The position numbers and the translations under genes are program-made. Below are positions 31,075-63,364 of a stretch of 64,000 bases of DNA, one piece after another. Location: assembly GCA_020631855.1 (NCBI GenBank), contig JACKGU010000001.1:295601-359600 (forward strand), in the 5' to 3' direction. The notes under the pieces were generated by a model that was given only the letters and a program-made list of their open reading frames with translations, was not told where the DNA came from and ran no database searches. Source of the DNA: Candidatus Nomurabacteria bacterium. GTDB taxonomy: Bacteria > Patescibacteriota > WWE3 > UBA101185 > UBA10185. Positions within the stretch are counted from its first letter, which is position 1; each line of letters starts with the position of its first letter.

Positions 31075-31246
31075 TTATTCTAGCTTGTTCCGAAATTTCA
31101 AAGGATCTTGAGATCTCTTCTCTTCCTTTTGAAAGTACTATAAAAAGTATAAAGATACTTGAGCAAAAAATCAACAAGAACCATTTCATATTATTATTTT
31201 ATATCTTTCTACAAACAAATACTTCATAAAAATGCAAAGCTTAGTA

Positions 31247-32728: not shown

Positions 32729-32800
32729 ACTGCGGTAGTATGATAACACAGTAGCACAATTTGACAATACTTTGTTATACTAGGACCCCATAACTGATCA

Positions 32801-32920
32801 ACCACCACCAGCTGACGCAGGTGATTTGCTGTAATTTCTTTGCGCTGTAAAGCCCAACATGTTGGGCAAACTACATTTACTAGCTTACGCAAGTAGTTTT
32901 AAGTAACGAAATTATATAAG
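32801..32920 (+). repeat. Copy C of the ~115-nt structured repeat family
   Basis: ACCACCACCAGCTGACGCAGGTGATTTGCTGTAATTTCTTTGCGCTGTAAAGCCCAACATGTTGGGCAAACTACATTTACTAGCTTACGCAAGTAGTTTTAAGTAACGAAATTATA. Sits in the divergent spacer between rpsT and murJ. Confidence 0.85.
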
Positions 32921-32976
32921 ATAGCAAAAATTAAGACGGTGCTTAAATAATCGGCTGTGTACACAGGCCGTAATTT

Positions 32977-34671: not shown

Positions 34672-34730
34672 TTATCTTTTCAATACAGAGAGGGGTTGTA
34701 GTTTTAGATCAAGAATTATAAAGTACTTTT

Positions 34731-36542: not shown

Positions 36543-37445
36543 CGAGATATAGGACTTCAATTTTTTCAGCTTAATTACATCTTCTAGCCTTCTGGTGCCG
36601 GCCTTTATCTCCATATAATATTCAAAAATATTAGTCACATCGTTGAGAAACTTCTTTGTTGAAACAACATACCCGGCTATTAGAACGAGCTCGGAGATTT
36701 GTTTAGTACCCATAAATACATCGCGCACAACAAGTAGCAAAATACTAAGTTTAAAAAAAGACACTAATGATTGAAGGCTGAACCAGGAAATAAAACGAAA
36801 AGACTGAACATCACCATACTTACCCCAAACTTTCTCAGCATAACTTTTTACGCGATCATTAACCAAAAGCCGTGAGTAATATTTCTCTCTAACCTGATCG
36901 AATTTTTCGTATAAAACCTCATAGTGTCTTGAAAGAAAATAAGAAGAGATAATATAGAAAGATATCGCAGAAACCTCTAAATAAAAGACTCGTACATCAA
37001 TCAACAATAAGATGAAAGGGATTAAAATAAACTCAACAATTCCCTGAAAACCATCGTCAATCATATGAGTTACAAACCGTCTAATGGCATGAGTTAAATT
37101 ACGAACTGCCTGCACTACCTCCATACGGTCTTTTTCTTTCGGAGAAAACGTTATTAAAAAGTCTGTTTGAACTTCAACAAGCTTTTTTTCTGTCGTAAAA
37201 GAAATCAAAGATTTTGATCCGACACGAACAAGGTGCTCAATAATTTCTGTAACTAGAATAAGGGCAAGGGGCAAAACGATTTCGCTAAGGGACATTCTTT
37301 GCTCTATACGATAAATGCCTAATGAAAATAGAAAAGTTACTAAAAGAGGCCCTAAGGTGCAAATAAGACGCAACAAAATATACAGGTTATACTCTCGCGT
37401 GAAAAAAAATTTAATTAAGTAGTTTCTTATAAGACGGGCAGTCAT
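36531..37445 (-). CDS. Polytopic membrane protein resembling an ABC-exporter transmembrane domain with no ATPase domain
   Basis: 304 aa, about 6 predicted TM helices with long cytoplasmic helical extensions; no Walker motifs. 12-nt convergent overlap with lepA. Confidence 0.35.
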   Translation of the reverse strand: MTARLIRNYLIKFFFTREYNLYILLRLICTLGPLLVTFLFSLGIYRIEQRMSLSEIVLPLALILVTEIIEHLVRVGSKSLISFTTEKKLVEVQTDFLITFSPKEKDRMEVVQAVRNLTHAIRRFVTHMIDDGFQGIVEFILIPFILLLIDVRVFYLEVSAISFYIISSYFLSRHYEVLYEKFDQVREKYYSRLLVNDRVKSYAEKVWGKYGDVQSFRFISWFSLQSLVSFFKLSILLLVVRDVFMGTKQISELVLIAGYVVSTKKFLNDVTNIFEYYMEIKAGTRRLEDVIKLKKLKSYISSIT

Positions 37446-37540: not shown

Positions 37541-37576
37541 TTGACACTCTTAGCACTCATGATAATATAGTGACAA
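37541..37576 (+). promoter_or_regulatory. Sigma-70-like promoter (TTGACA-N16-TAATAT) overlapping a CIRCE-like inverted repeat, immediately upstream of hrcA
   Basis: TTGACA at 37541-46, TAATAT at 37563-68. The CIRCE-like element is at 37550-37576: TTAGCACTC-N9-TAGTGACAA. The left arm is a perfect CIRCE half-site; the right arm matches GAGTGCTAA at 6 of 9 positions with the canonical 9-nt spacer. Confidence 0.5.
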
Positions 37577-37577
37577 T

Positions 37578-38309
37578 ATGTTGTTAACAGAAAGACAGAT
37601 AAACCTACTAAAAGCTATCATAGAAGAGTATTTAGATACTGCTCAACCTGTTGGGTCCTCTCTTATTGTCGAGAAATACAACGTTAAATGCTCCCCTGCC
37701 ACAGTTAGAAACGAAATGGCAAGATTGCTCAGCGAAGGTTTTTTGCAGATGGAGCATACATCTTCGGGAAGAATTCCAACTTCTTCGGCTTATAAGTTCT
37801 TTTTGGAGGAATTGATGGAAGAAGAAGAGCTGGATGTCCTGCAGGAAGTTGCGATGAAACAGAAACTTTGGGCTAACAGATATGAATTTGAAAAACTTCT
37901 AAGACAAGCGGTACTCGCGTTATCTGAAATAACGCAAGAATTGGCCCTAGCTACAACCGATGACGGATACGTAATTCATGCAGGATCGGTTAACCTTTTG
38001 GATCACAAGGAGTTCACTGATGAAAATACAATAAAAAGCATACTACATATGCTGGACAGACACGAGGCGCTAGCAAAAATATTTGAAAAAATAAGCTTAG
38101 TAGATGACGGAGAAGTAAAATGTCTGATAGGCGCAGATTTGGAGCACCCGAACTTAGAAGGTTGCAGCGCAATTGTCGCAAAATACAGCGTGGGGAAAAG
38201 AAAAGGTTATATAGCGGTATTAGGTCCCTCAAGACTTCAGTATCAAAGAATAATCCCTTCACTTAGGTACACTAAAAATTTAGTAGAAGAACTTGGCGGT
38301 TCTTGGTAA
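37578..38309 (+). CDS. hrcA: Heat-inducible transcription repressor HrcA (short, 243 aa)
   Basis: 'LTERQINLLKAIIEEYLDTAQPVGSSLIVEKYNVKCSPATVRNEMARL' is the HrcA winged-helix N-terminus; operon with grpE-dnaK-dnaJ. Confidence 0.85.
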   Translation: MLLTERQINLLKAIIEEYLDTAQPVGSSLIVEKYNVKCSPATVRNEMARLLSEGFLQMEHTSSGRIPTSSAYKFFLEELMEEEELDVLQEVAMKQKLWANRYEFEKLLRQAVLALSEITQELALATTDDGYVIHAGSVNLLDHKEFTDENTIKSILHMLDRHEALAKIFEKISLVDDGEVKCLIGADLEHPNLEGCSAIVAKYSVGKRKGYIAVLGPSRLQYQRIIPSLRYTKNLVEELGGSW

Positions 38310-38776
38310 TCAAAATGACAAGTAAAAAAAGCACAACAAAAGTAGTCGAAGAACTACAGAAAAAAATTGAAGAATACGAAGAAAATTGGAAACGAGCTCT
38401 AGCGGACTATAAAAATCTTCAAAAAAGGGTTGAGGAAGAAAGGGCTGAGATATTCGGGTACGCAAATAAAAACCTAATTCAAAGATTTATACCTGTTCTG
38501 GACAACCTGGAAACTATGGCAAAGCACTTTGAAGACCAAGGAATAAAATTAATTTTAAAACAATTGATACAAATTCTTGAAGAAGAGGGTGTAGCAGAGA
38601 TAGAGTCCGATAAGAAAACGTTTGATCCACATGAAATGGAAGCAGTTGAGCATGTAGAAACCGGAGGCGATCTAGACAACAAAGTTATTGAGACTACTCA
38701 AAAAGGATACAAGATGGGAAACAAAGTTATCAGGCCTGCTAGAGTAAAAGTAGGCAAAACAAAAGGAGAAAAATAG
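38303..38776 (+). CDS. grpE: Nucleotide exchange factor GrpE
   Basis: 157 aa; '[19 protein letters not shown]', '[13 protein letters not shown]', '[19 protein letters not shown]' GrpE blocks. 7-nt overlap with hrcA. Confidence 0.85.
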
Positions 38777-38777
38777 T

Positions 38778-40658
38778 ATGGGTAAAATAATAGGCATAGA
38801 CCTAGGTACAACAAACAGTGCGATGGCCGTAATGGAAAGTGGCCAACCAAAAATAATTCCAAACTCTGAGGGTATGAATACAACTCCCTCGATAGTAAAC
38901 CCTACTGCAAACTTGGTAGGCGTAGCTGCAAAGAGACAGCAGGTGGTAAATCCAAAAAACACCATTTTCAGCATCAAAAGGCTGATAGGTATGAAGTTCA
39001 ACGATCCTGAGATTGACACACTCAAAAAAAACTATCCCTACACTATAGTGGAAGGTAAAAATGGAATGGCTGCAGTAGAGGTAGACGGGAAAACCTTCAC
39101 GCCACAAGAAATATCAGCCATGATTTTAAGAAAACTTAAAGCTGATGCTGAAAAATATTTGGGGCAAGAAGTAACAGAGGCGGTAATTACCGTCCCTGCC
39201 TACTTTAATGACGCGCAAAGATCAGCAACTAAAGAAGCCGGACAAATAGCAGGCTTAGAGGTTAAAAGAATAATTAACGAGCCTACTGCAGCTTCTCTAG
39301 CCTATGGCTTGGATAAGAAATCAAATGAAAAGATAGTGGTTTATGACTTAGGTGGAGGAACCTTTGATGTTTCTGTACTTGAGGTGGGAGACGGAGTTTT
39401 TGAGGTTAAATCAACGAACGGAGATACACATTTAGGGGGAGATGACTTTGACGTATGTTTAATAAATTGGCTGCTTGAGGAGTTTAAGAAAGAAACAGGC
39501 ATAGAACTAACTCAAGACAAGCAAGCAATGCAAAGACTAAAAGATGCAGCGGAAAAAGCCAAAATAGAGCTATCAAGTACTCTTGAAACAGAAGTAAATA
39601 TACCTTTCATCACTGCAGATGCAAATGGCCCAAAACACATGAATATTAAACTCACTCGATCTAAATACGAACAACTAGTCGAGGAGTTGATTAATAAAAC
39701 ACTCAAGCCAATAGAAAACGCACTAAAAGATGCGTCCTTAGATAAAGGGCAGATAGACGAAATTGTGATGGTCGGAGGTATGACTAGAACTCCAAAAGTG
39801 AACGAGGTTGTTAAAAAATCTTTCGGAAAAGAGCCGCATAAAGGAGTTAACCCCGATGAAGTTGTTGCAATTGGGGCCGCTATACAAGGGGGCGTACTAG
39901 GTGGGGACGTAAAAGATGTTCTACTACTCGATGTCACACCCCTAACCTTGGGGATCGAAACACTAGGCGGAATTATGACTCCTTTAATTAAACGGAACAC
40001 AACAGTGCCGACTGCAGCAAATCAAATATTCAGCACTGCTGCCGATAGCCAAACTAGCGTGGAAATAAACATTCTTCAAGGAGAACGCGAAATGGCAATA
40101 GATAACAAGAGTCTTGGCCGCTTTATATTAGACGGAATACCGCCGGCCCCAAGAGGCGTTCCTCAGATAGAAGTTACATTTGACTTAGATGCCAGCGGCA
40201 TAATACACGTTAGCGCCAAAGACAAGACCTCAGGCAAAGAACAAAAAATAAAGATTGAAGGTGGAACAGGCCTTAGTCAAGAAGAAATAGATAAAATGGT
40301 AAAAGACGCCCAACTTCATGCTGAAGAAGATAAAAAGAAAAAAGAACAAATAGAGGCCAGGAATATAGCTGATAACATGTGCCATGCCGCAGAGAAAGCC
40401 TTAAAGGATTCCGAAGGTAAGCTGACAGAGGAAATTGTTTCTGATATTACAGCTAAGGTGAAGGGTGTCAGAGATGTTCTGTCCACAGCTTCCACAGAAG
40501 AACTCAAGCAAAAAACCGAAGAGTTAAGTAGCGCTATGCAGAAAATAGGAGAGCACCTTGCAAAGCAATCACAAACCGGCACGGAAGAGCAAGGAAATGA
40601 CCCTAAAAGAGAAGGTCCGGAGGATGAAGTAACAGAAGGGGAAGTGGTGCAAGAGTAG
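38778..40658 (+). CDS. dnaK: Chaperone DnaK (Hsp70)
   Basis: 626 aa; '[10 protein letters not shown]', 'DLGGGTFD', 'VGGMTRTP' Hsp70 signatures. Confidence 0.97.
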
Positions 40659-40688
40659 AGTTTACGGACAGATTCTGAGTGTCTTTTG

Positions 40689-40714
40689 GTGTGCGGGCCG
40701 TAAGGCCCGCACAC
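40689..40714 (+). promoter_or_regulatory. 11-bp GC-rich hairpin (GTGTGCGGGCC-guaa-GGCCCGCACAC) between dnaK and dnaJ
   Basis: Perfect stem with a GNRA-type tetraloop and no U-tract. Likely a partial terminator or mRNA-stability element setting the dnaK:dnaJ ratio. Confidence 0.5.
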
Positions 40715-40746
40715 TACGTTAAAACTAAGAGAAAGAAAAGAACAAT

Positions 40747-41661
40747 ATGGAAAAAAGAGATTACTATGAAATACTAGGCATTTCTAAAAGCGCCTCTCCG
40801 GAAGAAATAAAAAGCGCTTACAGAAAACTTGCCAGAGAGCACCATCCGGATATGGTAAAAGATGGGGACAAGGCAGCTGCTGAGAAAAGATTTAAAGAAA
40901 TAAATGAAGCTTATCAAATATTAAGCGAGCCCGATAAAAGAAAAATGTACGATCAATTCGGCCACGAAGGCGCTAAATATCGAAATACCGGACAAGGTTT
41001 TAGCGGGGGAGGCGCCGGAGGTCCTTTCAGCTATACCTACACAACGGGAGGCGCGGGCTTTGACGGAATAGATCCTTTTGATATATTCGAACAATTTTTC
41101 GGGTTTCGCGGCTTCGGGGGAAGAAGGCAAAACAAAGGAAAGAATCTTTACTACGAACTACATGTTGCATTTGAAGACGCAGTGCATGGTGCAAAAAAAG
41201 ATATAACCACAGAAGCCGGCAAAATAACAATAAAAATCCCGCAAGGAGCCAGAGACGGTATAGAGCTAAGATTCGCGGGCAAGGGAATGCCGGGTCCGGC
41301 AAAAGACATACCTAACGGAGATTTATTTATAACATTAAGGATCGCAACACCGAAGATTTTTCAAAGAGCCGGAGATAATCTTGGGACACTACTAAAAATT
41401 GACTTCATTCAGGCTATATTGGGTGACGAGGTGCCTGTAGATGTAATAGATACATCAGAGAAAACAGGCATGGGCCACGTGAAACTTAAAATACCAGCGG
41501 GTACTCAAAACGGGGCCCAATTCAGGCTTAAAAACCGAGGTATGCCGAAACTTCAAGGAACAGGACAAGGAGATTTAATAGTTCAAGTTGAGGTAATAAC
41601 ACCAAAAAAAGTTTCAAAGAAACAGAAACAGCTACTTGAAGAATACCGTAAAAACTCATAA
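40747..41661 (+). CDS. dnaJ: DnaJ-family co-chaperone lacking the Cys-rich zinc-finger domain
   Basis: 304 aa; J-domain '[31 protein letters not shown]', G/F-rich linker, C-terminal substrate-binding domains; no CxxCxGxG repeats. Confidence 0.85.
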
Positions 41662-46764: not shown

Positions 46765-48999
46765 ATGAAACAAGTCAAAAAAGAAATAGACTTTAACGGT
46801 AAAAAAATTACGCTTGAAACAGGCAAATTAGCCCCTCAAGCAAATGTATCAATCAAGGCCACATACGGCGAAACGGTCATCTTGGTGACCGCAGTGTCAG
46901 GCGGGCAGAATCCAGACCTGGATTACTTCCCTCTTCAGATGTCTTACGAAGAGAAACTTTATGCAAGCGGAACAATAAAAACTTCCAGATTTGTAAAAAG
47001 AGACGGAAGACCCACTGACGATGCAACAGTCACACGAAGACTCATAGATAGAGCTATTAGACCTCTTTTTCCGGATGACTTTTCGGATGAAATACAAATA
47101 ATCATGACAGTATTATCCTTGGACGAAGATTCCGATCCTGCATTTCTAGCGGGCTTGGCGGCTTCTGCTGCGCTGCAAGCCTCAAATATTCCATTTGAAG
47201 GCCCCATGATTCCTGTAAAAGTAGGCTATGCGGATCAAAAATATATTCTCATACCGACCAGAAAACAAACCGAAGAAGATTCCGATCTTAATATGATGGT
47301 CTCTTTTTCAGGAACAGATAGAAAATTTTTATCAATTGATGCCAGCGCCAATATCTTGCCAGAAAAAGTAATTTTAGGAGCAATAGAATTTGCAAGAGAT
47401 AACGCGGAACCATTGTTAAACCTAGTTATGGATTTCGCTAAGGAATATAATCCAGATGGTACGAAATATACTTATATTTCATCAAAACCTTCGGATGAAG
47501 TCATTAACTCCGTAAAAGCAATTGTAAAAGACGAGCTCGCAACGTTAATAAAGGGAAACTACAAGTACAACGAAGCTTTAAATAATCAAAAGAGCATGCT
47601 TGTAGAAAAAGTCTTTACAGAACTTGAAGGCAAGTTTAAGAAATCCGAAATGGTTAAAGCGCTGGAGAAAATAGAGAAAAACATAGCTCGAGCTCTCATA
47701 ATGGAATCAGGAAAAAGAATTGACGGTCGTTCAGAGAGCGACCTTAGACCGATTTCAGGAGAAGTCGGGCTATTGCCACGAACACACGGCAGCGGATTAT
47801 TTAACAGAGGGCTGACTCAAGCTCTAACAGTTGCTACATTAGGAAATCCTTCTTTAGAGCTGCTTATTCAAGACATGTATGGAGAAAAAACAAAACGATA
47901 CCTCCATTACTATAACTTCCCTCCTTTTGCTACAGGCGAAGTAGGACGAATAGGCGGAGCCAATCCAAGAGAAATTGGCCATGGGATGTTAGCTGAAAAA
48001 GCACTTGTCCCTGTAATACCAAGCAAAGAAGAGTTTCCATATACAATTTTACTTATGACCGAAACTTTATCTTCAAACGGCTCCAGCTCGATGGCCGCGA
48101 CATGTGGCTCTACCCTGGCTCTGATGGATGCTGGCGTACCAATTAAAGGCGCTGTAGGAGGAGTTGCAATGGGACTTATGGCAAACGAAGATCAATCAGA
48201 ATTTATGATTCTTAACGATCTTAGCGGCTATGAAGACTCTGTTGGCTACATGGACTTTAAAATGACAGGAACAAAAGAAGGAATAACCGCTATACAAGTC
48301 GACATCAAACTAAAAGGCTTACCAATGGACTTGATTCCGAGAATAATTGAGAAATCGAGAGAAGCTCGACTGGAAATTATTGAAAAAATAGAAGAGATTA
48401 TCTCCTCACCAAGAGATAGTTTGAGTAAATACGCGCCGAAAATGTGTGTAGTCAAGATTGATCCTACAAAAATCGGAATGGTTATAGGCAGCGGAGGCAA
48501 AACCATCAAGGAAATTCAGGAGCAGACTAATACTGAGCTTGGCATCGATGATGATGGGACAGTATTTATCTCAGGAGAATCCGAAGAAGATGTTGCACGC
48601 GCTCAAGGAATGGTTGAGGGCCTGACCAAGGATATTGAGGTTGGAGAAGTGTACGAAGGAACTGTAAAAGAAATAGTAGACTTTGGTGCTTTCGTAGAAA
48701 TTCTTCCTAATAAACAAGGGTTACTTCATATAAGCGAGATTACAGATGATTACGTAGAAAAGGCTTCAGATCACCTAAAAGAAGGTCAAGTGGTTACCGT
48801 AAAGGTAATAGAAACAGGCCCTAATGGAAAAGTCTCTCTATCGATGAGAGCCATGAATCCCGGGTATGAGCCCAAACCAAGGCACAGCGACAGAGGAGGA
48901 AGATCTTCAAGTGGCGGACACAGCGGGCGCGATAGAAACTCACACAATTCCGGAGGCGGAAGAGATAGAGGCGGAAGGAACTTCAGAGATAGAAGATAG
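46765..48999 (+). CDS. pnp: Polyribonucleotide nucleotidyltransferase (PNPase) with RGG/RDR-rich C-terminal tail
   Basis: 744 aa; two RNase PH domains, KH ('IGMVIGSGGKTIKEI'), S1 ('GEVYEGTVKEIVDFGAFVEIL'). Tail 'GGHSGRDRNSHNSGGGRDRGGRNFRDRR'. Confidence 0.97.
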   Translation: MKQVKKEIDFNGKKITLETGKLAPQANVSIKATYGETVILVTAVSGGQNPDLDYFPLQMSYEEKLYASGTIKTSRFVKRDGRPTDDATVTRRLIDRAIRPLFPDDFSDEIQIIMTVLSLDEDSDPAFLAGLAASAALQASNIPFEGPMIPVKVGYADQKYILIPTRKQTEEDSDLNMMVSFSGTDRKFLSIDASANILPEKVILGAIEFARDNAEPLLNLVMDFAKEYNPDGTKYTYISSKPSDEVINSVKAIVKDELATLIKGNYKYNEALNNQKSMLVEKVFTELEGKFKKSEMVKALEKIEKNIARALIMESGKRIDGRSESDLRPISGEVGLLPRTHGSGLFNRGLTQALTVATLGNPSLELLIQDMYGEKTKRYLHYYNFPPFATGEVGRIGGANPREIGHGMLAEKALVPVIPSKEEFPYTILLMTETLSSNGSSSMAATCGSTLALMDAGVPIKGAVGGVAMGLMANEDQSEFMILNDLSGYEDSVGYMDFKMTGTKEGITAIQVDIKLKGLPMDLIPRIIEKSREARLEIIEKIEEIISSPRDSLSKYAPKMCVVKIDPTKIGMVIGSGGKTIKEIQEQTNTELGIDDDGTVFISGESEEDVARAQGMVEGLTKDIEVGEVYEGTVKEIVDFGAFVEILPNKQGLLHISEITDDYVEKASDHLKEGQVVTVKVIETGPNGKVSLSMRAMNPGYEPKPRHSDRGGRSSSGGHSGRDRNSHNSGGGRDRGGRNFRDRR

Positions 49000-49012
49000 C
49001 TTGAATTTTGTA

Positions 49013-49039
49013 TGCGGCACATTACCAATGTGCCGCATA
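49013..49039 (+). terminator. 11-bp hairpin (ATGCGGCACAT-uacca-ATGTGCCGCAT) downstream of pnp
   Basis: Perfect inverted repeat 13 nt after the pnp stop. Weak U-tract (ATCTGATAGAATTT). Confidence 0.45.
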
Positions 49040-49056
49040 TCTGATAGAATTTAAAC

Positions 49057-50157
49057 ATGCCCGACAAAAACTTTAGCATTGCAGACACCCCCAATCTTTC
49101 AGCCGCAGACTACGCATTTGCGGAACTCAGAACACTTTCGTCACTGGTTAATGACACCAGAGATATTCCTGAAGACCTTAAAGATAGGCTGAACCAGATG
49201 CTCGATCGTCTTGATAGAATGGCTAAGCTTGGTCACTATGCCCAAGAGTTCGATACCCTTTCCAGATATATCGAGACTATTGCAGAAATACCTTGGGGAG
49301 AAAAAACAAAAGACAATCTTGATCTAACAGAAACAAAAAATATTTTGGATAAGAATCACTATGGAATGGAGTGGGTCAAAGAGAGAATACTTGAATACCT
49401 AGCAACTATAAAACTTTTAAAAGACAGACAAAAAGAAGGGGTTGGAAAATCTCCGGTTTTGTTATTAGTGGGCTTACAGGGCATTGGAAAAACCACACTT
49501 GCAATGTCAGTAGCTGAAGCCTTGGGCAGAAAATTTATTAGAATATCCATGGGAGGTATAGGGAGTACTCTAGAATTAAGAGGAAGAAGCAAAGCCTACC
49601 CTGAAGCTGAGCCCGGGCAAATAATTAAAGCGTTGATCAAAACTGGCGTTAAAAACCCGGTAATCTTACTTGATGAAATTGAAAAAGCAAGCGGAGAGTC
49701 GGGGCTTAGATCGGATATCATGGCGATACTTCTGGAAATACTTGATCCGAGCCAAAATAACAGCTTTAGAGACCATTATATTGACTATCCGATAGATTTA
49801 TCCGACGTATTGTTCATTTGCTCAGCAAACAACACCGGCACAATAACAACTGCACTTATGGATAGGTTGGAAATAATCAAAATGCCTTCCTACACGGATG
49901 CGGAAAAAGCTACTATAGCCAAAGACTACTTATTACCTAAAGTTATCGAACTAAGTGGACTAAAGCCGGAAGAATTAGAAATTGATCCGGCTCTTTGGCC
50001 TAGCATTGTGCGTCCTTTTGGTTTTGATAGTGGTATTAGAAGCCTAAGTAGAACTTTAGAGGCTATTTGCAGAAAAGTAGCCAAAGAAATAGTTGAAGGA
50101 AAAACTAAAAAAGTAAGGGTAGACGAATCAAATTTAAAATACTACCTTCCCAGCTAA
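49057..50157 (+). CDS. Lon-type AAA+ ATPase module lacking both the N-terminal LON domain and the C-terminal Ser-Lys protease domain
   Basis: 366 aa; aligns along its length to the E. coli Lon region of about residues 240-585: 'NHYGMEWVKERILEYLA' vs 'DHYGLERVKDRILEYLA'; Walker A 'GLQGIGKTTLAMSVAEALGRKFIRISMGG'; 'KNPVILLDEIEKA' Walker B; 'LDPSQNNSFRDHYIDYPIDLSDVLFICSANN'; 'ALMDRLEIIKMPSYTDAEK'. ORF stops right after the AAA+ lid. The next gene is a UDG, not a protease domain. Confidence 0.75.
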   Translation: MPDKNFSIADTPNLSAADYAFAELRTLSSLVNDTRDIPEDLKDRLNQMLDRLDRMAKLGHYAQEFDTLSRYIETIAEIPWGEKTKDNLDLTETKNILDKNHYGMEWVKERILEYLATIKLLKDRQKEGVGKSPVLLLVGLQGIGKTTLAMSVAEALGRKFIRISMGGIGSTLELRGRSKAYPEAEPGQIIKALIKTGVKNPVILLDEIEKASGESGLRSDIMAILLEILDPSQNNSFRDHYIDYPIDLSDVLFICSANNTGTITTALMDRLEIIKMPSYTDAEKATIAKDYLLPKVIELSGLKPEELEIDPALWPSIVRPFGFDSGIRSLSRTLEAICRKVAKEIVEGKTKKVRVDESNLKYYLPS

Positions 50158-50192: not shown

Positions 50193-50804
50193 ATGAGCCA
50201 AAATACAGAAAAACTACAAATTATAGAAAGAGAAATACGCAAGTGCGAAAAGTGTTCTCTGTGCAAAACTGCCCTACAGGCAGTACCCGGAGAAGGTTCA
50301 AGCACGGCAAAAGTAGTTTTTATCGGCGAAGCTCCGGGAGCAACAGAAGATAAAACAGGCCGACCATTTGTAGGAAGAGCCGGAAATCTACTGGAAAAGC
50401 TTCTTGAAAAAATAAACCTGTCGAGGGAGGAAGTTTGGATAGGAAATATTATCAAACACAGGCCCCCTAAGAACCGCGACCCTCTGCCTGAAGAAATTAA
50501 AGCTTGCAGAGGGTATCTTGAAAACCAATTGGCAGTAATAAAGCCATCCCTGATAGTGACTTTGGGGAGATTCGCAATGAACCACTTCTATCCCGAAGGA
50601 AAAATTACAAAAGATCACGGCAAACTAATCAAACTGCACAATTTCAATGTTTTTCCTGTTTATCATCCTGCCGCGGCTTTAAGAAACAGATCATTTGCTG
50701 AAGCTTTAGCAAAAGATTTTTTAAATATTCCGAACGTACTTACGGAACTTAGTAAAAATGAGAAGAGTACAAATAACACAATGATGGCGAAGCCGTTATT
50801 GTAA
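50193..50804 (+). CDS. Uracil-DNA glycosylase, family 4 (Fe-S type)
   Basis: 203 aa; 'CEKCSLC', 'VVFIGEAPGATED', 'GRPFVGRAGNLL', 'FPVYHPAAALRN' family-4 UDG motifs. Confidence 0.8.
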   Translation: MSQNTEKLQIIEREIRKCEKCSLCKTALQAVPGEGSSTAKVVFIGEAPGATEDKTGRPFVGRAGNLLEKLLEKINLSREEVWIGNIIKHRPPKNRDPLPEEIKACRGYLENQLAVIKPSLIVTLGRFAMNHFYPEGKITKDHGKLIKLHNFNVFPVYHPAAALRNRSFAEALAKDFLNIPNVLTELSKNEKSTNNTMMAKPLL

Positions 50805-55475: not shown

Positions 55476-56285
55476 ATGGACCTTAATGCTGCTCAAAACA
55501 CCAATAATCAACAGCTAAACTCGCACCCAGACGATGCTCAGAAAAATAAGCTCAATACGATTTTACCGGGCACCAATTCTCAAAGCTTGGGAGGGAATTC
55601 TCCGATTACAAGCATTGCAGGGGTGTCGGACGACGATCTTCAAAACAAAAGCATAAATCTAGACACGCAAGATACCCTAAGTACAGAAAATAAGACCAAC
55701 ACAAACAAAGAAATAGAAAAAGCAAAAGGCTACAAAGATGACATAAGTAAAATTGTATATGACTTTCTAGAAAAAAACGGAGAGAGCCTAGACAGTATGG
55801 AAGAGGTTCCATCAGACATAGGACCCTCAATAAATAACCATCCCGCAACACTTGGCCCCGGAAAAGGAAGAAGGGAGATTTTTACAAGCCCTGTAATAGG
55901 AACTATTAGTGAAAATGCGCCTATAAGCCATCGCGAAACCTTCCAAACTGAAATAGACCCGGCTTCTCAAACAGAGCAGATTTCTGTAGCTAAGGCAGAA
56001 ACATCCGCTCAAGAAGAAAAAAATTCTTCGGAAATTCAAAGTATACAGGAAGTATTACAAAACCCACAACCAGATTCCGAGAATTACGATAAAATATCAA
56101 CATTGATTCCAGAAACCGAACCTATACCGCAGCCGGATAGTGATTTGAACGTTGTTGACCTGAGAACAGGCCATGAAAATTTGCAACAAATTGCCGATCC
56201 AATAGATAAATTAACTGAAGAAGCAGATGAGAAAGAGGCAGACTTTATAACAAAAGTGGAGGATACACATGCTGTCGCTAACTGA
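55476..56285 (+). CDS. Acidic, low-complexity (predicted disordered) protein
   Basis: 269 aa; D/E/Q/S/T/N-rich, no TM. 3' end overlaps the start of the downstream ATPase gene by 17 nt, implying co-translation. Confidence 0.4.
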   Translation: MDLNAAQNTNNQQLNSHPDDAQKNKLNTILPGTNSQSLGGNSPITSIAGVSDDDLQNKSINLDTQDTLSTENKTNTNKEIEKAKGYKDDISKIVYDFLEKNGESLDSMEEVPSDIGPSINNHPATLGPGKGRREIFTSPVIGTISENAPISHRETFQTEIDPASQTEQISVAKAETSAQEEKNSSEIQSIQEVLQNPQPDSENYDKISTLIPETEPIPQPDSDLNVVDLRTGHENLQQIADPIDKLTEEADEKEADFITKVEDTHAVAN

Positions 56286-58677
56286 TATAGCCTACAACAT
56301 CTTCTGGATACTCTTTTACATTATTTTCTTGGCGAGCACTATATTAGGAATATTTTATATGCTTGCCAAAACCAAAAGACAAAGATTTCTAAAAAACAAA
56401 CAATATAATTTGACCTTCTTCCATGTTAAAGTACCACAACAAAACGAATTCGAAATAGATGCGGCAGAACAACTTTTTGCAGGCGTGGCAGGTTTGAGAA
56501 GATCAACTCTGGAAGGACTTTTGAAAGGCCAATACCAAGTCTCATTTGAGATCTTGGCCAAACACGGGCAAATAGGCTTCTATATAGTAATGCCTGACGA
56601 ATTGGTGGAATTTATGGAAAAGCAGATTAACGGGGCCTATCCTACTGCCGAAATAGACATTATTGATCCAAACGAAGTTTGGGACAGAGGGCACTTCACA
56701 GCTATCGCAGAGCTAAAACTTAAAGGACCGGCATTCTACCCTATTAGAACGATAAAAGAGAAAGAAGGTGACCCGCTAAGCACTCTCACCTCGGTACTAA
56801 CAAAGCTGAAAAAAGACGAGGTTATAGCTATTCAGCTTGTAACCTCACCTGCCAGTAACTGGTGGAGGGCTGCAGGAAATGCTTTTATCGGACATGTCAA
56901 ACACGGCGGAAATCCCGAAAAGAAAAGTGCCCCAGACAACTCCATGCTGGAAGGTGTTGAGAAAAAAATAGGAAAAAGCGGGCTTGATGTCGTTGTGAGA
57001 GTTGTCTCAATAGCTGAAACCAAACACATAGCGGAAAGCCACATAATGAACGTTGTAACCGCCTTCGAGCAGTATACTGATGTTAAATACAATAAATTCA
57101 AAAAAAGCAGAGTTTTATTTAAAACAAAATTTGTAAATGATTTCATTTACAGAAACATAACGCCTCTAAATATATACATCCCGATTTTATATAACACACT
57201 TTATAGCAGAACCTCGGTACTGAATATTACTGAGATGGCAAACATCTTCCACATGCCTAACAAAAACATACAAACTCCAAACATTCTGTGGCTAATTGCA
57301 AGAAAGGCGTCAGCCCCGTCAAACATACCTCACGAAGGCCTGTATTTAGGAATCAATCAGTTTAGAGGCTCACAGAGAGGTATCTATATGAAAGAGAAAG
57401 ATCGTACACGACATATGTATATTATAGGGCAAACGGGCACAGGTAAATCCGAGTTTATGAAGACACTGGTACTACAAGATATTGCCGCGGGAAAAGGTTT
57501 GGCTCTAATTGATCCTCACGGAAGCGATATAGACGATATCTTAGAAAAAATCCCGGAAAGCAGAATAGACGACGTAATACTTTTTGATGTTTCAGATATA
57601 GAACGCCCGATGGGATTAAACATGCTTGAAGCTGAAACCGAGGAAGAGAAACACATGATTATTAACTCATTTATTGCCTTGTTATATAAGCTATACGACC
57701 CAAACAGACAAGGTATCATGGGCCCTCAACTTGAAAGGGCTATAAGAAACGTTATGCTAACCGCAATGGTAGATAAAGAATCAACCATGGTAGATGTTCT
57801 AAGGCTATTGATCGACAACAAATATGTAGAAACTTTTATACCAAGAATTCAAGATCCACTAGTTAAACGGTACTGGACTGATGAAATGGCCAACACAAGC
57901 GACTACCATAAAGGCGAGAAAATGGGCTATTTTGTATCAAAATTTGATAGGTTCGTAACAGAGAGGACCATGAGAAATATACTAGGGCAACCAAAAAGTG
58001 CATTTAATTTTAACAAGATTATGGCAGAAAAAAAGATACTGCTCGTAGACCTGTCTAAAGGTAAGATTGGAGAAGAGAATTCAAACTTTATCGGCCTGCT
58101 TCTGGTTCCACGAATACTTGCTGCAGCTCTATCCAGAGCTTCCCTTTTAGGTAAAGAGGATTTCCCTGATTTTTATCTTTATGTAGATGAGTTTCAAAAC
58201 TTTGCCACACCTGACTTTGCTACTATACTGTCGGAAGCCAGAAAATATAAACTAAATTTGGTTGTCGCGCACCAATTTGTGGCACAGTTAACCGACGACA
58301 TTAAAGAAGCCGTGTTTGGTAACGTAGGAACAACTTGTGTTTACAGGGTTGGTCCGGACGATGCCGAATATCTTGAAAAACAGTTTGACCCTTATTTCAC
58401 AAAGTCAGATTTATTAAACTTGCCAATTGGAAACGCTTACATGAGGCTGCTTGTCGACGGCCACCCAACAACGCCTTTTTCCCTTGCTGTAGATTGGGAC
58501 ATGGTTAATAAAACTAAAAAAGATCCTTCTGTGGCAAAGAGAATAAGAGAAAACTCAAGCATGAAATACGGAACACCAGTAAATGAGGTTGAGGAATACA
58601 TAAATAAAAGGGCAGGGCTGAATAAACAAGGCGAGGATAGCCAACTACTTGAAAAAAGAAGTTTAATACCTTTTTAA
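56269..58677 (+). CDS. VirD4/TraD/TraG-like type-IV coupling-protein-family ATPase with N-terminal membrane anchor
   Basis: 802 aa; N-terminal TM (IFWILFYIIFLASTILGIFYMLA), about 300-aa domain of unknown function, then Walker A 'IIGQTGTGKSEFMKTL', coupling-protein-like Walker B 'YLYVDEFQNFATP' (xxDEFxN), C-terminal 'LNLVVAHQFVAQL'. The FtsK/HerA superfamily is certain; T4CP subfamily is probable. Confidence 0.6.
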   Translation: MLSLTDIAYNIFWILFYIIFLASTILGIFYMLAKTKRQRFLKNKQYNLTFFHVKVPQQNEFEIDAAEQLFAGVAGLRRSTLEGLLKGQYQVSFEILAKHGQIGFYIVMPDELVEFMEKQINGAYPTAEIDIIDPNEVWDRGHFTAIAELKLKGPAFYPIRTIKEKEGDPLSTLTSVLTKLKKDEVIAIQLVTSPASNWWRAAGNAFIGHVKHGGNPEKKSAPDNSMLEGVEKKIGKSGLDVVVRVVSIAETKHIAESHIMNVVTAFEQYTDVKYNKFKKSRVLFKTKFVNDFIYRNITPLNIYIPILYNTLYSRTSVLNITEMANIFHMPNKNIQTPNILWLIARKASAPSNIPHEGLYLGINQFRGSQRGIYMKEKDRTRHMYIIGQTGTGKSEFMKTLVLQDIAAGKGLALIDPHGSDIDDILEKIPESRIDDVILFDVSDIERPMGLNMLEAETEEEKHMIINSFIALLYKLYDPNRQGIMGPQLERAIRNVMLTAMVDKESTMVDVLRLLIDNKYVETFIPRIQDPLVKRYWTDEMANTSDYHKGEKMGYFVSKFDRFVTERTMRNILGQPKSAFNFNKIMAEKKILLVDLSKGKIGEENSNFIGLLLVPRILAAALSRASLLGKEDFPDFYLYVDEFQNFATPDFATILSEARKYKLNLVVAHQFVAQLTDDIKEAVFGNVGTTCVYRVGPDDAEYLEKQFDPYFTKSDLLNLPIGNAYMRLLVDGHPTTPFSLAVDWDMVNKTKKDPSVAKRIRENSSMKYGTPVNEVEEYINKRAGLNKQGEDSQLLEKRSLIPF

Positions 58678-58687
58678 GAAAGACGCT

Positions 58688-60565
58688 ATGGTAGAAACAG
58701 CAACCGCCGCAAATGACGCTTTAACAGCATTAAAGGGAAGGAGCGAAACAAAAGTTTCGCCTCTTGAAGAATTTTGGACAAATATAAATGCGCTTACTGC
58801 GGCTTCGCGACAACTGCTGACTAAAATAGAAACCAGCCCCCAGAGCGGACTGAATCAACGCAGAGCCGCACAGCTAGCTAGACAGGCTTTGGCTAGCTAT
58901 GAGATGACGACTAGCCTGACAGAAAATCCCACTAATAGAGAGGAAATTAATGCCCTTTCCAGGTTAGGCGCTGCGACAAACATCGACCCAACAAATCTAT
59001 ACAGAGAGACAATATTACTACAGCCGGAAGTACACTCGTATGAATATTCGGTCAAGCTGTTATTCTCCCACATAGTGTCTATGACCACTGAGGACAGAAG
59101 CAACACCACAAAAAACTTAGCATTGGTTTTAGCCGGGAATTGCTTAGACGGGAGTAAGGTTGATGTAAGAAAAATTCAAAACGAGCTCAGAGAATTAAAT
59201 TTTCCGAACCACCACTTATCAGAAGCAGCAGAGGCCATCGCTGCTATAATCCGGCATACGCCTTACAATCTAACAGATCATCAAGAAAAATTGGGGGTAA
59301 CAGGATACCCGGAAGTCTTGGCTAAAGCTTATAAGAGACTCTACGATCTAGCAACCAAACTTGATCCGGATACACCGCCTACAAAAGCGGAAGAAAGGTC
59401 ACAGCACCAACCCTATGCCAATTGGGAAGCCAGGGCCAAAGAAAGAGAATCGATACACTACAACAGTAATCCTAGAGAACACAAAATATTTTCACGTAAA
59501 GGAGAGATTTTGACTGCCAAGGGTTCGGAGAATAAAACAGCCCAAGTCTTAATTCCAACTGCCATACTTACCAGAACCGTACCTTTGGCGGACTTTGCAG
59601 GCAATGACAGGGCTTTCAATAAAGGATACGTAAAACTACAGCAGGTATTTACCTGCACAACATTTCAAGAAGTCGAAGCTACCCTTGAAATGCTAAACGC
59701 AGCATCTATTGCAGAAGAAGAAAAAACAGCACAGGTACCCATATATGTTCCTAAAACCGTGGTTCAAAATGGAAAAACAACAATTGAATATGAGATAACC
59801 TACATGGAGATGCCGATTGGAACCTATAATAGCTGGCGTAAAGCTTTAATGGAGGCTCGCAAATCCTACCTTAGAGCAGGATTTTCTATTCAAAACCAAG
59901 ATATAACTGCTGGAGTACGCTTAGCAACAGAGCAAGAGAATGCCTATGCAGAACAGACAATGTTGAATAGATATCAAGAGCTTTTGTCTGGACCTAGCCA
60001 TATCAAAGATTCTCTAGACGCATGGATGAGTCAAAGTCATTCAAGGGACAGATTTTACATTAAAGAATTGATGCAAAATACAATGGAACTAGTAAATGAG
60101 TTGACTGAAGAGCTTAATTTGACCCGAAACCCTCGCAATATAACATTAGAGGCTATGAAAACTCTTTATGAAGAAGGGCATGAGCAGCACCCACTGACGA
60201 TGGAAAAAGAAATAACACAGATGTTCGACAACAGAATGGCCGAGCGCTCTAACTATTATGTTGCAATGAAGGTAGCTTTGACAACTCTTGAAAATGTAAA
60301 TGCTTTACCGCCGCCAAGAGATCGCAAAGAAGCAAAAGAACAGATTAGAATGATTATAAATGTTCAAACACAAATAAAACAAATAATGCTTTTCTTGGCA
60401 CTTCAAGAAAAGGGCGTCTCCGAGAGCCGTGCCTCACAAGTCGCGCTGGAAAACTTCCCGGAACACTCAGTGATTAAAGCTCAAGTACCTTATAGGGCTA
60501 GAAATAGTCAAGCCAGAAGGGTTGCAGGAAAGAGACAAGCTGTTAGCAACCAAGGCTCTAGTTGA
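58688..60565 (+). CDS. Hypothetical 625-aa soluble protein immediately downstream of the coupling-protein-like ATPase
   Basis: No TM, no recognisable catalytic motif; mostly helical. Starts 11 nt after the ATPase gene stop. Confidence 0.4.
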   Translation: MVETATAANDALTALKGRSETKVSPLEEFWTNINALTAASRQLLTKIETSPQSGLNQRRAAQLARQALASYEMTTSLTENPTNREEINALSRLGAATNIDPTNLYRETILLQPEVHSYEYSVKLLFSHIVSMTTEDRSNTTKNLALVLAGNCLDGSKVDVRKIQNELRELNFPNHHLSEAAEAIAAIIRHTPYNLTDHQEKLGVTGYPEVLAKAYKRLYDLATKLDPDTPPTKAEERSQHQPYANWEARAKERESIHYNSNPREHKIFSRKGEILTAKGSENKTAQVLIPTAILTRTVPLADFAGNDRAFNKGYVKLQQVFTCTTFQEVEATLEMLNAASIAEEEKTAQVPIYVPKTVVQNGKTTIEYEITYMEMPIGTYNSWRKALMEARKSYLRAGFSIQNQDITAGVRLATEQENAYAEQTMLNRYQELLSGPSHIKDSLDAWMSQSHSRDRFYIKELMQNTMELVNELTEELNLTRNPRNITLEAMKTLYEEGHEQHPLTMEKEITQMFDNRMAERSNYYVAMKVALTTLENVNALPPPRDRKEAKEQIRMIINVQTQIKQIMLFLALQEKGVSESRASQVALENFPEHSVIKAQVPYRARNSQARRVAGKRQAVSNQGSS

Positions 60566-60628
60566 AAAATATCGAGGGCCTGTTTTTCAAATATACTACA
60601 AAAGCCCATTTATAGTATAATCAAGTAA

Positions 60629-61834
60629 ATGTTTAAACTGCCATTTAAAATAAATTTCAATAAAAAATCAAAAACGGATACTTTTTTAACAATAGACATA
60701 GGATCAAGCACAGTCAAAACACTAGCTTTTTATAATGACAGCGAAAGCAGATTAAAAGTAATCGGGCTGGGGAAGGAATTTTTACCCGAGGGTGCGGTAC
60801 GAGCCGGATATATAACTGATTTAAAAAGTGTCATAGAAGCAGTGGACGAAACAATTTATCAGGCCCTTGCTAATACGGAACACAGAATTACAGATGCGAT
60901 AATAGGAATATCCGAAAACCTGTGCTATTCGCAAGTTACAACCGGCCGGCTAAACAGAACTACGCCGGGAGAACTGGTTACAGAGAAAGAGCTGGATAAT
61001 TTGAAATACAAAATAATTGATGCTGCGTACAACACGGCCCTAGATGATTTTGTCTATAAAACCGGCGATCTTTCAACAGAGCTTATTCATATAAGCTCTA
61101 TTCCGGCCCATACAAAACTTGATTCAAAGATTGTTGACGACCCAACCGACTTGCCGGGAGCAAAAGTTGAGCTGGCAATTTACAATGCCTATTCCCCCGA
61201 ATATCATACAAAGCAACTGCAAAAAATTGCTGACACGCTAAAACTTTCAGTTTTAGCTATGGTTCCCAACATGTTCTCGTTAGGGGAAGCCCTAAAAAAA
61301 CTCACAAAGGACAATGAGTTGGATTGTATCATTTTAGATATCGGGGGAGAAACAACAGATGTAGGAATTATGTTTGGAGGGGGCCTTATAACTACAAAAA
61401 GCTTACCTATAGGAGGAAGGCACTATACAGAACAGCTATCTTTACAGAGCGGCCTTACTTGGGCAGAATCTGAAAAAAAGAAGAATCAGTACTATTTCGG
61501 ACAAACAGCAGATACAGAAACATCTTTCATCGAAACAGTAATGACTGAAACAACCGACCTGTGGCTCAGCGGGCTGGAAACCCTGTTTAATGAATTTAAT
61601 GGGGTCAGGACCTTTGCATCTGATATATTTGTAGTTGGGGGAGGAAGCTTGCTACCCGATATAATGGCAGCTCTAGAGTCCAGGCCATGGACAAAATCCA
61701 TACCTTTTAGAGAGCCGCCAAGAATAAAACGGGTCAGCATTTCTGAGCTGGATTTTGCTAGAGATACAACCGGCAAACTAAATGAATTGGATTATATTCA
61801 AGCCCTGTCTTTAGGTTTGATGGGAGAATATTAA
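60629..61834 (+). CDS. Actin-fold ATPase of the PilM/FtsA family
   Basis: 401 aa; 'FLTIDIGSSTVKTLAF...LKVIGLGKEFLPEGAVRAGYITD' (phosphate-1/adenosine motifs) and 'ILDIGGETTDVGIMFGG' (phosphate-2). No ftsZ follows, which favours PilM-like over FtsA. Confidence 0.55.
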   Translation: MFKLPFKINFNKKSKTDTFLTIDIGSSTVKTLAFYNDSESRLKVIGLGKEFLPEGAVRAGYITDLKSVIEAVDETIYQALANTEHRITDAIIGISENLCYSQVTTGRLNRTTPGELVTEKELDNLKYKIIDAAYNTALDDFVYKTGDLSTELIHISSIPAHTKLDSKIVDDPTDLPGAKVELAIYNAYSPEYHTKQLQKIADTLKLSVLAMVPNMFSLGEALKKLTKDNELDCIILDIGGETTDVGIMFGGGLITTKSLPIGGRHYTEQLSLQSGLTWAESEKKKNQYYFGQTADTETSFIETVMTETTDLWLSGLETLFNEFNGVRTFASDIFVVGGGSLLPDIMAALESRPWTKSIPFREPPRIKRVSISELDFARDTTGKLNELDYIQALSLGLMGEY

Positions 61835-63364
61835 ATGACAAAATTTGAAATTGAAATACACGACGATTTAATAAATGTGCTTGGAAAACTACAAACAATA
61901 AATGACGACGGAATTGAGCTCATTATTCCTGAAGGTTCAGTAATTTTTGAAAACATTTTAAATCTTAGAATTATTCAAAAAGAACTTGAAAAATCTGGAA
62001 AAACAATACATTTCGAGACGTCGGATGAAAACGGAAAAAGACTTATAGAAAATCTTGAAAATGACTCCTCCGGCCTTTCTTCCGAGCTGGATTTTACAGA
62101 AGCTGAAGCAACTGAAATAAACCCAAAAACACACAGAAAAAAACAACGCACGGTCTCGCTTGCATTACCTAAATTTAAATTTTCAGGGGGTACAAAATTT
62201 AAAATAGCAGGTTTAATAGGAGTTGTGACCGCCGTAATCATAGGAAGTTTATACCTATTGATTTGGAAACAGCATAAGGCAATCGTAAATTTAGTCGTGG
62301 AGGCACAGCCTCTGGTTAAGAGCGTACAGATTAGAGTGGCAACAAACAGCGAAACAAATACCGAACAAAAAACTCTAAAAGGCTCACAAGTAAGTACAAG
62401 CACCGTCCAGACCGCGAGCGTGCCAACAACAGGGGAAAAACTGGTAGGTAACCAAGCCTCAGGAACTGTAAAAATTTACAACAAAACAACAAATGGTAAA
62501 ACCTTTAAAAAAGGTACGGTTCTTGTCTATAAAAAAGACGATAAAACCCTAAAATATACACTTGACGAAGAAGTAGAAGTACCTGAAAGAACGGAAGATA
62601 TCTTGCAGGATCCGCCATTAATAACTTGGGGTGAAAAAGAAGTTGATGTTACAGCAGAGGAAATAGGAAATTCTTATAATATTGACTCGGGCGAAAGTTT
62701 GGATTTTGATGATTTCGACAAGGACGATTACACTGCAAAGAGCACGACAAAAATCAACGGGGGCAGCAGCGAGACACTTAAAATTGTGGCCCAAGAAGAT
62801 ATAGACAACCTACTTATCGAGCTGGAAAAAAGTGACGATAAAACTAAAACCGAGCTACAGCAAAAAACTTCGACAGGACGAAAATTAATTCCCGGGTCAA
62901 TCAGCCTTCAGACAACAAAAGATTCCTTTAGCGCCGAACTAGGAGACGAGGCGGAAAATCTAGAGCTTGTCAGAGAAGCGACGGCCACAGGGCTAACTTA
63001 TTCCGAAAATGAACTGGAAGTTCTACTAGACAGACTCGTAGATGATTTCGTCCCGGAAGGCTTTGAGCTATCGACAAAAGACAAGGAGATAAAAGCAGAG
63101 GTCTTAGGTGCAACGGAAACTACGACACTTTCAAGCGAACAGGCCGATTTACAGGTAACCATTAAGGCTTACGTGATACCAAAAATTGATGAGATCGAGC
63201 TAAGGGAGAATTTGGCAGGGGCCCCGTTGTCGAAAGCAGAAGAAATATTAAATGCTATTTCTAATGTTGCAACCTATTCTTTAGATGTAAAACCAAATAT
63301 TCCGCTGCTTAATTCCCTTCCCCATAATCCGGAAAATATAGAGATAACAGTAACTAAAAGGTAA
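61835..63364 (+). CDS. Bitopic membrane protein (about 115-aa cytoplasmic N-terminus, 1 TM, about 370-aa extracytoplasmic domain), hypothetical
   Basis: 509 aa; TM 'IAGLIGVVTAVIIGSLYLLIW'; T/S/E/K-rich external domain. Starts 1 nt after the PilM/FtsA-like gene. Confidence 0.4.
   Translation: MTKFEIEIHDDLINVLGKLQTINDDGIELIIPEGSVIFENILNLRIIQKELEKSGKTIHFETSDENGKRLIENLENDSSGLSSELDFTEAEATEINPKTHRKKQRTVSLALPKFKFSGGTKFKIAGLIGVVTAVIIGSLYLLIWKQHKAIVNLVVEAQPLVKSVQIRVATNSETNTEQKTLKGSQVSTSTVQTASVPTTGEKLVGNQASGTVKIYNKTTNGKTFKKGTVLVYKKDDKTLKYTLDEEVEVPERTEDILQDPPLITWGEKEVDVTAEEIGNSYNIDSGESLDFDDFDKDDYTAKSTTKINGGSSETLKIVAQEDIDNLLIELEKSDDKTKTELQQKTSTGRKLIPGSISLQTTKDSFSAELGDEAENLELVREATATGLTYSENELEVLLDRLVDDFVPEGFELSTKDKEIKAEVLGATETTTLSSEQADLQVTIKAYVIPKIDEIELRENLAGAPLSKAEEILNAISNVATYSLDVKPNIPLLNSLPHNPENIEITVTKR

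Follow-up and report, generated by a model that had tools for sequence, protein, structure and literature searches.

A stand-alone LonA-type AAA+ ATPase gene lacking the N-terminal and protease domains of Lon in a WWE3 genome

Gene and domain content

The window, that is, the whole 64,000-nucleotide stretch of contig JACKGU010000001.1 analysed here (positions 295,601 to 359,600, forward strand; GenBank assembly GCA_020631855.1, Candidatus Nomurabacteria bacterium, WWE3), carries a gene for a stand-alone LonA-type AAA+ ATPase of 366 amino acids (aa), the coordinates of which are collected with those of its features in Table 1. An earlier note, made from the sequence letters alone, had read this open reading frame (ORF) as a Lon AAA+ module without LON domain or protease, starting about 240 residues into LonA and ending at the lid, and this description was borne out. 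Pfam returned AAA (residues 135–274, E 6e-20) and Lon_lid (residues 300–352, E 1e-12) and nothing else; LON_substr_bdg (PF02190) and Lon_C (PF05362) had no match in the 366-aa protein. LonA profiles were covered over their central third only, from position 266 to 575 of 795 in TIGR00763 ("endopeptidase La"; 353.1 bits against a cut-off of 608.05) and from position 247 to 579 of 784 in PRK10787 (the E. coli-type Lon model; 267.6 bits against a cut-off of 891).

By sequence, the closest solved structure was that of B. subtilis Lon (3m6a, E 7e-84, query residues 23–364), followed by about 30 more Lon sequences belonging to LonA and mitochondrial LONP1. An AlphaFold model of the monomer (mean predicted local distance difference test score, pLDDT, 70.6) comprised a helical bundle, an alpha/beta core and a lid, and when the model was searched against the PDB with Foldseek the top 50 matches were all LonA, including the E. 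coli fragment 6n2i. The helical region that precedes the core corresponds to the last helices of the inserted coiled-coil domain of LonA (a three-helix bundle) plus the helix that leads into the AAA+ core; helices were predicted in the model at residues 22–33, 39–58, 62–77, 90–100 and 105–123.

An in-frame TAG lies four codons 5' of the ATG, and therefore the ORF has no N-terminal extension; in most orthologues the start site is ~13–18 residues further downstream than in the window copy. The upstream gene, pnp (PNPase), ends at 48999, leaving 57 nt to the ATPase ATG, and the downstream gene (50193–50804) starts 36 nt past the ATPase stop, so that neither flank has space for a missing Lon domain. 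The downstream gene had been named a family-4 UDG in the earlier note, correctly so (TIGR00758, 189 bits; cut-off 125).

Catalytic residues and pore loops

The residues K145/T146, D206/E207, N258, R270 and R328 did not vary among 120 + 17 family members or among 53 species representatives. The arginine finger (R270) works in trans, from one subunit to another, and its retention speaks for an ATPase that is oligomeric and catalytically active. The Walker A motif bears a family signature, GLQG[VI]GKT as against GPPGVGKT in LonA, with L140 and Q141 each present in 100% of 120 WWE3-type members at the positions where LonA has proline in 92% and 100%.

Pore loop 1 is rewritten and acidic. LonA has IRGHRRTY[VI]GAMPGRII, with GHRRTY[VI]G[AS]MPG as its core form, and WWE3-type members have G[RK]SKx[FY]PE[AS]EPG, which reads RSKAYPEAEPG in the window copy. 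The position of the LonA aromatic residue is held in the WWE3 type by F78/Y11/L9, with P-E next; in deeper branches it is occupied by E, S, D, I, M or K, and E-P-G alone is invariant. Pore loop 2 takes the family form EKASGExGLRSDIMA, in which positions 215–216 are gapped in 88–98% of LonA and G213, G216, L217, D220 and M222 are 100% conserved in the WWE3 type. The mean consensus fraction was 0.86 for pore loop 1 and 0.88 for pore loop 2, as against 0.78 for the entire protein, and both loops were conserved to the same degree as the catalytic core. These values indicate that the channel is under selection and has been re-specified rather than left to decay or abandoned.

Family, conservation and origin

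Sixteen independent contigs, stemming from different assemblies and sequencing runs, carry the identical protein, each time in the same context, and this disposes of the frameshift or assembly artefact that the earlier note had kept in reserve. In a protein-database search, the best 120 matches listed had 68–76% identity and lengths of 352–381 aa, except for one of 416 aa, and the named entries among them were WWE3 or Patescibacteria; the databases label members "Lon protease" or merely "AAA family ATPase". A species scan, with one genome taken per GTDB species, gave 54 loci, 53 of them with a complete gene; those that bear a phylum-level label are WWE3, Dojkabacteria, Patescibacteria or Saccharibacteria and, as the one exception, Gammaproteobacteria. 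The comparison with relatives suggested in the earlier note returned the same truncation in 53 of the 53 complete orthologues, which are 352–455 aa long and stop 0–7 residues past the lid, typically at ...NLKYYLP[KQS]; at locus L014 an intact ORF of 357 aa was recovered.

Among 31 genomes sharing the neighbourhood, the ATPase was its most conserved gene, with a median identity to the window copy of 70.7%, followed by S15 (68.6%), IF2 (61.0%), UDG (59.0%), PNPase (55.6%), FtsK (51.9%) and RNase J (50.9%). In a neighbour-joining tree of the shared region, the short proteins were monophyletic with respect to 34 full-length LonAs in 50 of 50 bootstraps, and their internal distance (0.73) was about that of LonAs across different phyla (0.76). 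When 1.84 billion cluster representatives were searched exhaustively, no full-length Lon closer than ~46% identity came up; the search gave additional protease-less relatives at 44–57% identity, two of them named by NCBI as Dojkabacteria. From the conservation, the shared ends and the monophyly it follows that the truncation arose long ago, has become fixed and is maintained by strong purifying selection. In full-text literature searches, no publication dealing with a Lon ATPase devoid of protease, or with Lon in WWE3/CPR (candidate phyla radiation), came to light, and the family is apparently undescribed so far.

Two further observations were made among the relatives. Many of the best-scoring cluster representatives had 2–4 tandem Lon-type AAA+ matches (P0121–P0139 and others; P0121 is NCBI MFC1854773.1, Candidatus Dependentiae). 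Two such proteins scanned with Pfam (1113 and 1075 aa) had 3 and 2 AAA modules, respectively, followed by one Lon_C, and in a crude motif scan the pore loops of tandem-AAA proteins were degenerate in some modules; these proteins may represent a Lon variant with several rings, or else fusions made by gene calling. In addition, the Dojkabacteria-type proteins at L053 (9908–11158), L054, L057, L059 and L062 carry a 7-residue acidic tail past the lid that ends in V-Y-S or V-Y-T and resembles the hydrophobic-Tyr-X docking tails of proteasomal ATPases, with no peptidase gene nearby.

Search for the missing Lon domains and a partner peptidase

Searches by tblastn and hidden Markov model (HMM) found nothing else of the Lon N-domain or Lon_C within the window, and in 64 loci, drawn from more than 50 genomes and amounting to ~1 Mb, both domains were absent within ~10 kb of the ATPase gene. 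No peptidase gene was consistently adjacent to the ATPase gene in WWE3, Dojkabacteria or other divergent members. The statement in the earlier note that the protease domain was not simply split off is thereby upheld for the locus itself and for ~20 kb around 54 related loci. A crude Lon_C HMM, built from the last 225 residues of full-length Lons, matched the family proteins themselves at ~29 bits, and these matches were tentatively attributed to source sequences that overlap the end of the lid.

Three candidates for the missing parts were rejected. A frameshift or hidden protease domain was set aside on the upstream TAG, the TAA at the lid, the UDG gene 36 nt on and the empty tblastn and HMM searches of the window and the 64 loci. 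The gene found upstream of the ATPase gene in relatives was considered as a split-off Lon N-domain and was found to encode a zinc ribbon, a transmembrane segment and an unknown domain with no Pfam, NCBIfam or PHROG match. The extensions of divergent members (85–335 aa at the N-terminus, 80–200 aa at the C-terminus) were considered as Lon remnants and proved to be low-complexity sequence rich in Q, P, S, T and N.

Genomic context

In the window, the ATPase gene is preceded by the heat-shock operon hrcA-grpE-dnaK-dnaJ (37578–41661), a histidine phosphatase gene, nusA, infB, a DHH-like gene, rpsO and pnp, and is followed on its 3' side by udg, rnj, ftsK and a gene for a HerA/TraG-like ATPase. The order pnp-[X]-ATPase-udg-rnj-ftsK was held across WWE3 down to ~45% identity. 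In Dojkabacteria this order is not kept, and the ATPase gene often stands after rplY/ctc with unrelated housekeeping genes as neighbours.

The gene denoted X (300–346 aa) abuts or overlaps the start of the ATPase gene, at spacings of -23 to +19 nt, in 37 related loci, which are most of the WWE3-type ones; overlaps of 1–23 nt are frequent. Its product carries a zinc ribbon (CPxC...FCxxCG) at the N-terminus, together with one transmembrane helix and a ~230-aa domain that evolves fast; copies are 13–21% identical to one another and had no match in Pfam, NCBIfam or PHROG. An example is L019:9058–9984 (WWE3 RAAC2, CP006914.1), and in L039 X is split into two ORFs. The AlphaFold model of the X protein had a pLDDT of 44, too low for the model to be of use. 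X was not found in the 64-kb window by HMM and is missing from 7 related loci; a database profile search for X gave 15 matches, none of them on the 629,590-bp contig of the window, although the X family evolves too fast for a firm verdict. Since X is absent from the window, it is not obligatory for the ATPase; its product may be an anchor, adaptor or client of the ATPase.

The spacer between pnp and the ATPase gene was predicted to fold strongly (49000–49060, 61 nt, -24.4 kcal/mol, z = -6.4), none of 200 shuffles being equally stable, and its hairpin probably serves as the 3' terminator of pnp or in processing. A promoter-like site ends 6 nt 5' of the ATG and overlaps this hairpin; in the consensus scan such sites were no more numerous in the region than in shuffles. 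From a site so placed, the ATPase mRNA could start with a very short leader or be leaderless.

Two further roles were considered and rejected. A CIRCE-like inverted repeat at 37550–37576 (TTAGCACTC-N9-TAGTGACAA, 3 mismatches) lies directly upstream of hrcA; within the window such an element occurs only there, with none before the ATPase gene, and heat-shock control of the ATPase was not retained. PADLOC defence models gave generic AAA matches only (at most 32 bits), the surrounding genes are housekeeping genes, and membership of the ATPase in a defence system was likewise discarded.

Other features of the window were noted in passing. The PNPase has an Arg/Gly/Ser-rich C-terminal tail past its S1 domain (~48862–48996, ...PRHSDRGGRSSSGGHSGRDRNSHNSGGGRDRGGRNFRDRR). 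On the minus strand, 22579–24762 encodes a class II aminoacyl-tRNA synthetase (tRNA-synt_2 plus OB anticodon domain) fused to a C-terminal HD phosphohydrolase. A 305-aa ORF on the plus strand (26098–27015), which matched only the N-terminal domain of aldehyde:ferredoxin oxidoreductase, lies between pgk (24908–25873) and tpiA (27015–27671), the usual place of a gap gene. Near 24.8 kb, gene orientation turns from mostly minus to mostly plus and the cumulative GC skew has its minimum at ~24–37 kb; the region ~24800–37000 may be a replication origin region, and dnaA was not identified among the window ORFs scanned. Within the region 55476–63364, the HerA/DUF87-TraG-like ATPase (56269–58677) is flanked by large ORFs that have no Pfam match (55476–56285, 58688–60565 and 61835–63364) and an FtsA/PilM-like protein (60629–61834), and this region may encode a secretion or pilus-type apparatus.

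Table 1. Coordinates of the ATPase gene, its domains and motifs, and the adjoining spacer features (window positions).
Feature	Position	Strand	Basis or remark
Hairpin in pnp–ATPase spacer, perfect 11-bp stem and 3-nt loop	49013..49037	+	RNA fold
Promoter-like TTACCA-17-TAGAAT, TG before the -10 hexamer	49022..49050	+	Consensus scan; weak evidence
In-frame TAG, 4 codons 5' of ATG	49045..49047	+	Sequence
Stand-alone LonA-type AAA+ ATPase gene	49057..50157	+	ATG start, 366 aa, TAA stop
Variable N-terminal tail, residues 1–20	49057..49116	+	Mean consensus fraction 0.17; pLDDT <50 for residues 1–16
Helical region, residues 21–123	49117..49425	+	Aligns with B. subtilis Lon construct 9–106; PRK10787 from 247
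AAA+ alpha/beta (large) subdomain, residues 124–278	49426..49890	+	Pfam AAA 135–274; model strands and helices
Walker A GLQGIGKT, residues 139–146	49471..49494	+	Translation
Pore loop 1 region LRGRSKAYPEAEPGQII	49576..49626	+	Column statistics, per-clade listing; rewritten, acidic
Walker B ILLDEIEK, residues 203–210	49663..49686	+	D206 and E207 100% conserved
Pore loop 2 region IEKASGESGLRSDIMAILL	49678..49734	+	Family-specific 2-residue insertion
Sensor-1 asparagine N258	49828..49830	+	100% in short family and LonA
Arginine finger R270, in trans between subunits	49864..49866	+	100% in every group
AAA+ lid (small alpha) subdomain, residues 279–366	49891..50154	+	Pfam Lon_lid 300–352; C-terminus ...NLKYYLPS
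Sensor-2 arginine R328	50038..50040	+	100% conserved
TAA stop at LonA lid/protease boundary	50155..50157	+	Sequence; matching position in 53 orthologues

Interpretation and alternatives

The gene is best read as a functional member of a monophyletic, LonA-derived AAA+ family of WWE3 and Dojkabacteria (Patescibacteria), the product of which would be a ring-forming, protease-independent, ATP-driven remodeller; a probability of roughly 0.55 is assigned to this reading. In this family, substrate recognition by an N-terminal domain and proteolysis by a C-terminal Ser-Lys domain have been given up for good, and all residues for ATP binding and hydrolysis are kept, including the inter-subunit arginine finger. 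The protein would assemble into a Lon-like ring, probably a hexamer, and cycles of ATP would allow it to grip and remodel client proteins through the central channel without degrading them, with an acidic, family-specific and highly conserved channel lining that would set its client specificity, and possibly its mode of grip, apart from those of Lon. Motif conservation and homology to LonA are the grounds on which ring assembly, ATPase activity, remodelling, the existence of clients and the lack of a partner peptidase are proposed. Ring ATPases that remodel proteins without degradation are exemplified by ClpB/Hsp104, and yeast mitochondrial ClpX acts without ClpP; proteolytically inactive yeast Lon (Pim1) reportedly still supports complex assembly, a chaperone-like activity. 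The suggestion in the earlier note of a Lon-derived unfoldase or chaperone survives in the favoured form of a stand-alone Lon-derived ATPase; its unfoldase part is less secure, with the pore loop 1 motif lost and threading not assured.

Several points weigh against the remodeller reading. The canonical aromatic-hydrophobic-Gly motif of a translocase pore loop 1 is not present, the window copy having Y-P-E, and this change weakens the case for processive threading, so that classical unfolding is not assured. The protease ring and the N-terminal region are understood, in part from PMC8244335, to contribute to the stability of the LonA hexamer, so that an ATPase-only protein need not form a ring. 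Confidence in the AlphaFold model is only moderate; the model is weak in the N-terminal tail and around the pore loops, the pore loops themselves being poorly modelled. The main rival is a split Lon in which the ATPase would dock in trans on a separately encoded Lon_C/S16 or other compartmental peptidase and feed substrates to it; the acidic V-Y-S/V-Y-T tail of some Dojkabacteria members, which resembles the C-terminal docking tails of other unfoldases, would suit it. AAA+ unfoldases often pair with separate peptidases, as in ClpX/ClpP and HslU/HslV, and Lon AAA modules do occur in other arrangements, with 2–3 tandem AAA modules and one Lon_C. Stand-alone Lon-like proteases with no working ATPase also exist (PMC3391209). 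A split Lon is nevertheless judged unlikely, given that neither the window nor the ~10-kb surroundings of the 64 loci contained Lon_C, that no peptidase neighbour is conserved in WWE3 or Dojkabacteria, that WWE3-type proteins, the window copy included, have no tail past the lid, and that a translocase feeding a protease would not typically have a pore loop 1 so rewritten and in part without an aromatic residue.

A non-threading ATP switch or regulator, in which a ring or monomer would bind a partner or nucleic acid in a nucleotide-dependent manner with no unfolding, is considered comparably improbable; its partner could be the zinc-ribbon membrane protein or RNA/DNA-processing enzymes. The loss of the pore loop 1 aromatic residue in deeper branches would fit such a switch, as would the deposition of the LonA ATPase fragment 6n2i as "DNA-binding ATP-dependent protease La", the synteny from pnp to udg-rnj-ftsK across WWE3 and the overlapping or abutting zinc-ribbon gene in 37 related loci. 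However, both pore loops are conserved like the catalytic core, which argues for a channel in use, and nucleic acid would be repelled by the acidity of the channel; the pnp...ftsK block is passed on as a unit and its synteny dissolves in Dojkabacteria, and the zinc-ribbon gene is missing from the window and from 7 related loci. A recent truncation, a decaying pseudogene (the earlier note had offered a domain-loss pseudogene in progress) or an assembly or frameshift artefact draws its only support from the loss of two of the three LonA regions. It is regarded as refuted by the identical protein on 16 contigs, the matching ends in 53 species-level orthologues, a conservation above that of ribosomal protein S15 and highest in the neighbourhood, the invariant catalytic residues, the deep-branching monophyly of a family to which no full-length Lon comes closer than ~46% identity, and flanks with no coding remnant of either lost domain.

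The remodeller reading can be taken further, although only tentatively, to a possible but doubtful state of affairs in which WWE3 and Dojkabacteria would have no Lon protease at all and the ATPase-only descendant, with its acidic channel, would be essential and protease-independent, the zinc-ribbon membrane protein anchoring it or handing clients to it in most WWE3.

Comparison with known systems

According to the current classification, all Lons carry both an ATPase and a protease domain (PMC9569914). With LonA (E. coli Lon, B. subtilis LonA, human LONP1; MEROPS S16, TIGR00763), the three-helix bundle, AAA+ alpha/beta subdomain and lid of the ATPase family are homologous at 42–46% identity; the Walker A/B, sensor-1, arginine-finger and sensor-2 residues are identical, and the family also retains the region that aligns with the pre-sensor-1 segment. 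The family differs from LonA in having no LON N-domain, long coiled coil or Ser-Lys protease domain, and in its GLQG Walker A, its pore loop 1 (x[FY]PE[AS]EPG against TY[VI]GAMPG) and a pore loop 2 that is two residues longer. Of four tests for LonA membership, the window protein passed that for the AAA+ core, bundle and lid and failed those for the N-domain, the S16 domain and the whole-protein score. Its boundaries are nearly equal to those of 6n2i, a 338-residue crystal structure of the E. coli "Lon protease AAA+ domain" (query residues 33–364 correspond to chain residues 19–339; Foldseek TM-score with the AlphaFold model 0.68, target-normalised). The 6n2i fragment is an engineered piece of a full-length protease, whereas the window protein is a natural, independently evolving product with conserved pore loops of its own.

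LonC of Meiothermus taiwanensis, which has no ATP-powered unfolding (PMC3391209), is likewise a natural Lon derivative minus one activity, and is the mirror image of the family described here: LonC has kept the protease with a degenerate ATPase, whereas the family has a complete ATPase and no protease, so that the window protein does not show the LonC combination of degenerate ATPase and active protease. LonB and LonBA resemble the family in having a Lon-type AAA+ module without the N-terminal region of LonA. They retain the protease domain, however, and LonB carries an inserted membrane anchor between its Walker A and Walker B motifs; the window protein has neither, and the spacing from its Walker A (139–146) to its Walker B (203–210) is LonA-like with no insertion. 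The proposed action is like that of ClpB/Hsp104 and of ClpX without ClpP, namely ring remodelling with no degradation. By sequence the protein is no member of these groups, ClpA and ClpB models giving weak, generic AAA matches of at most 38 bits, and it differs from stand-alone remodellers in that it has just one AAA+ module and that its family as a whole does not keep a canonical aromatic pore loop.

Implications

Lon is the classic example of ATPase and protease joined in a single polypeptide. Here, in genomes of ~0.6–0.9 Mb, a lineage-wide family has kept only the motor of Lon and is more strongly constrained than a ribosomal protein; this indicates that the Lon ATPase serves a valuable function by itself. 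The names under which members are currently filed are an annotation problem as well. The family offers a natural system for the long-debated protease-independent (chaperone-like) activity of Lon, shows a re-tuning of pore-loop chemistry in which an acidic loop stands without the aromatic-hydrophobic-Gly motif, and contributes to an understanding of the organisation of proteostasis in the minimal cells of the Patescibacteria. If WWE3 and Dojkabacteria indeed have no Lon protease, the chaperone and remodelling activity of Lon would here be naturally separated from proteolysis, and the family would constitute a new subfamily beside LonA, LonB, LonC and LonBA.

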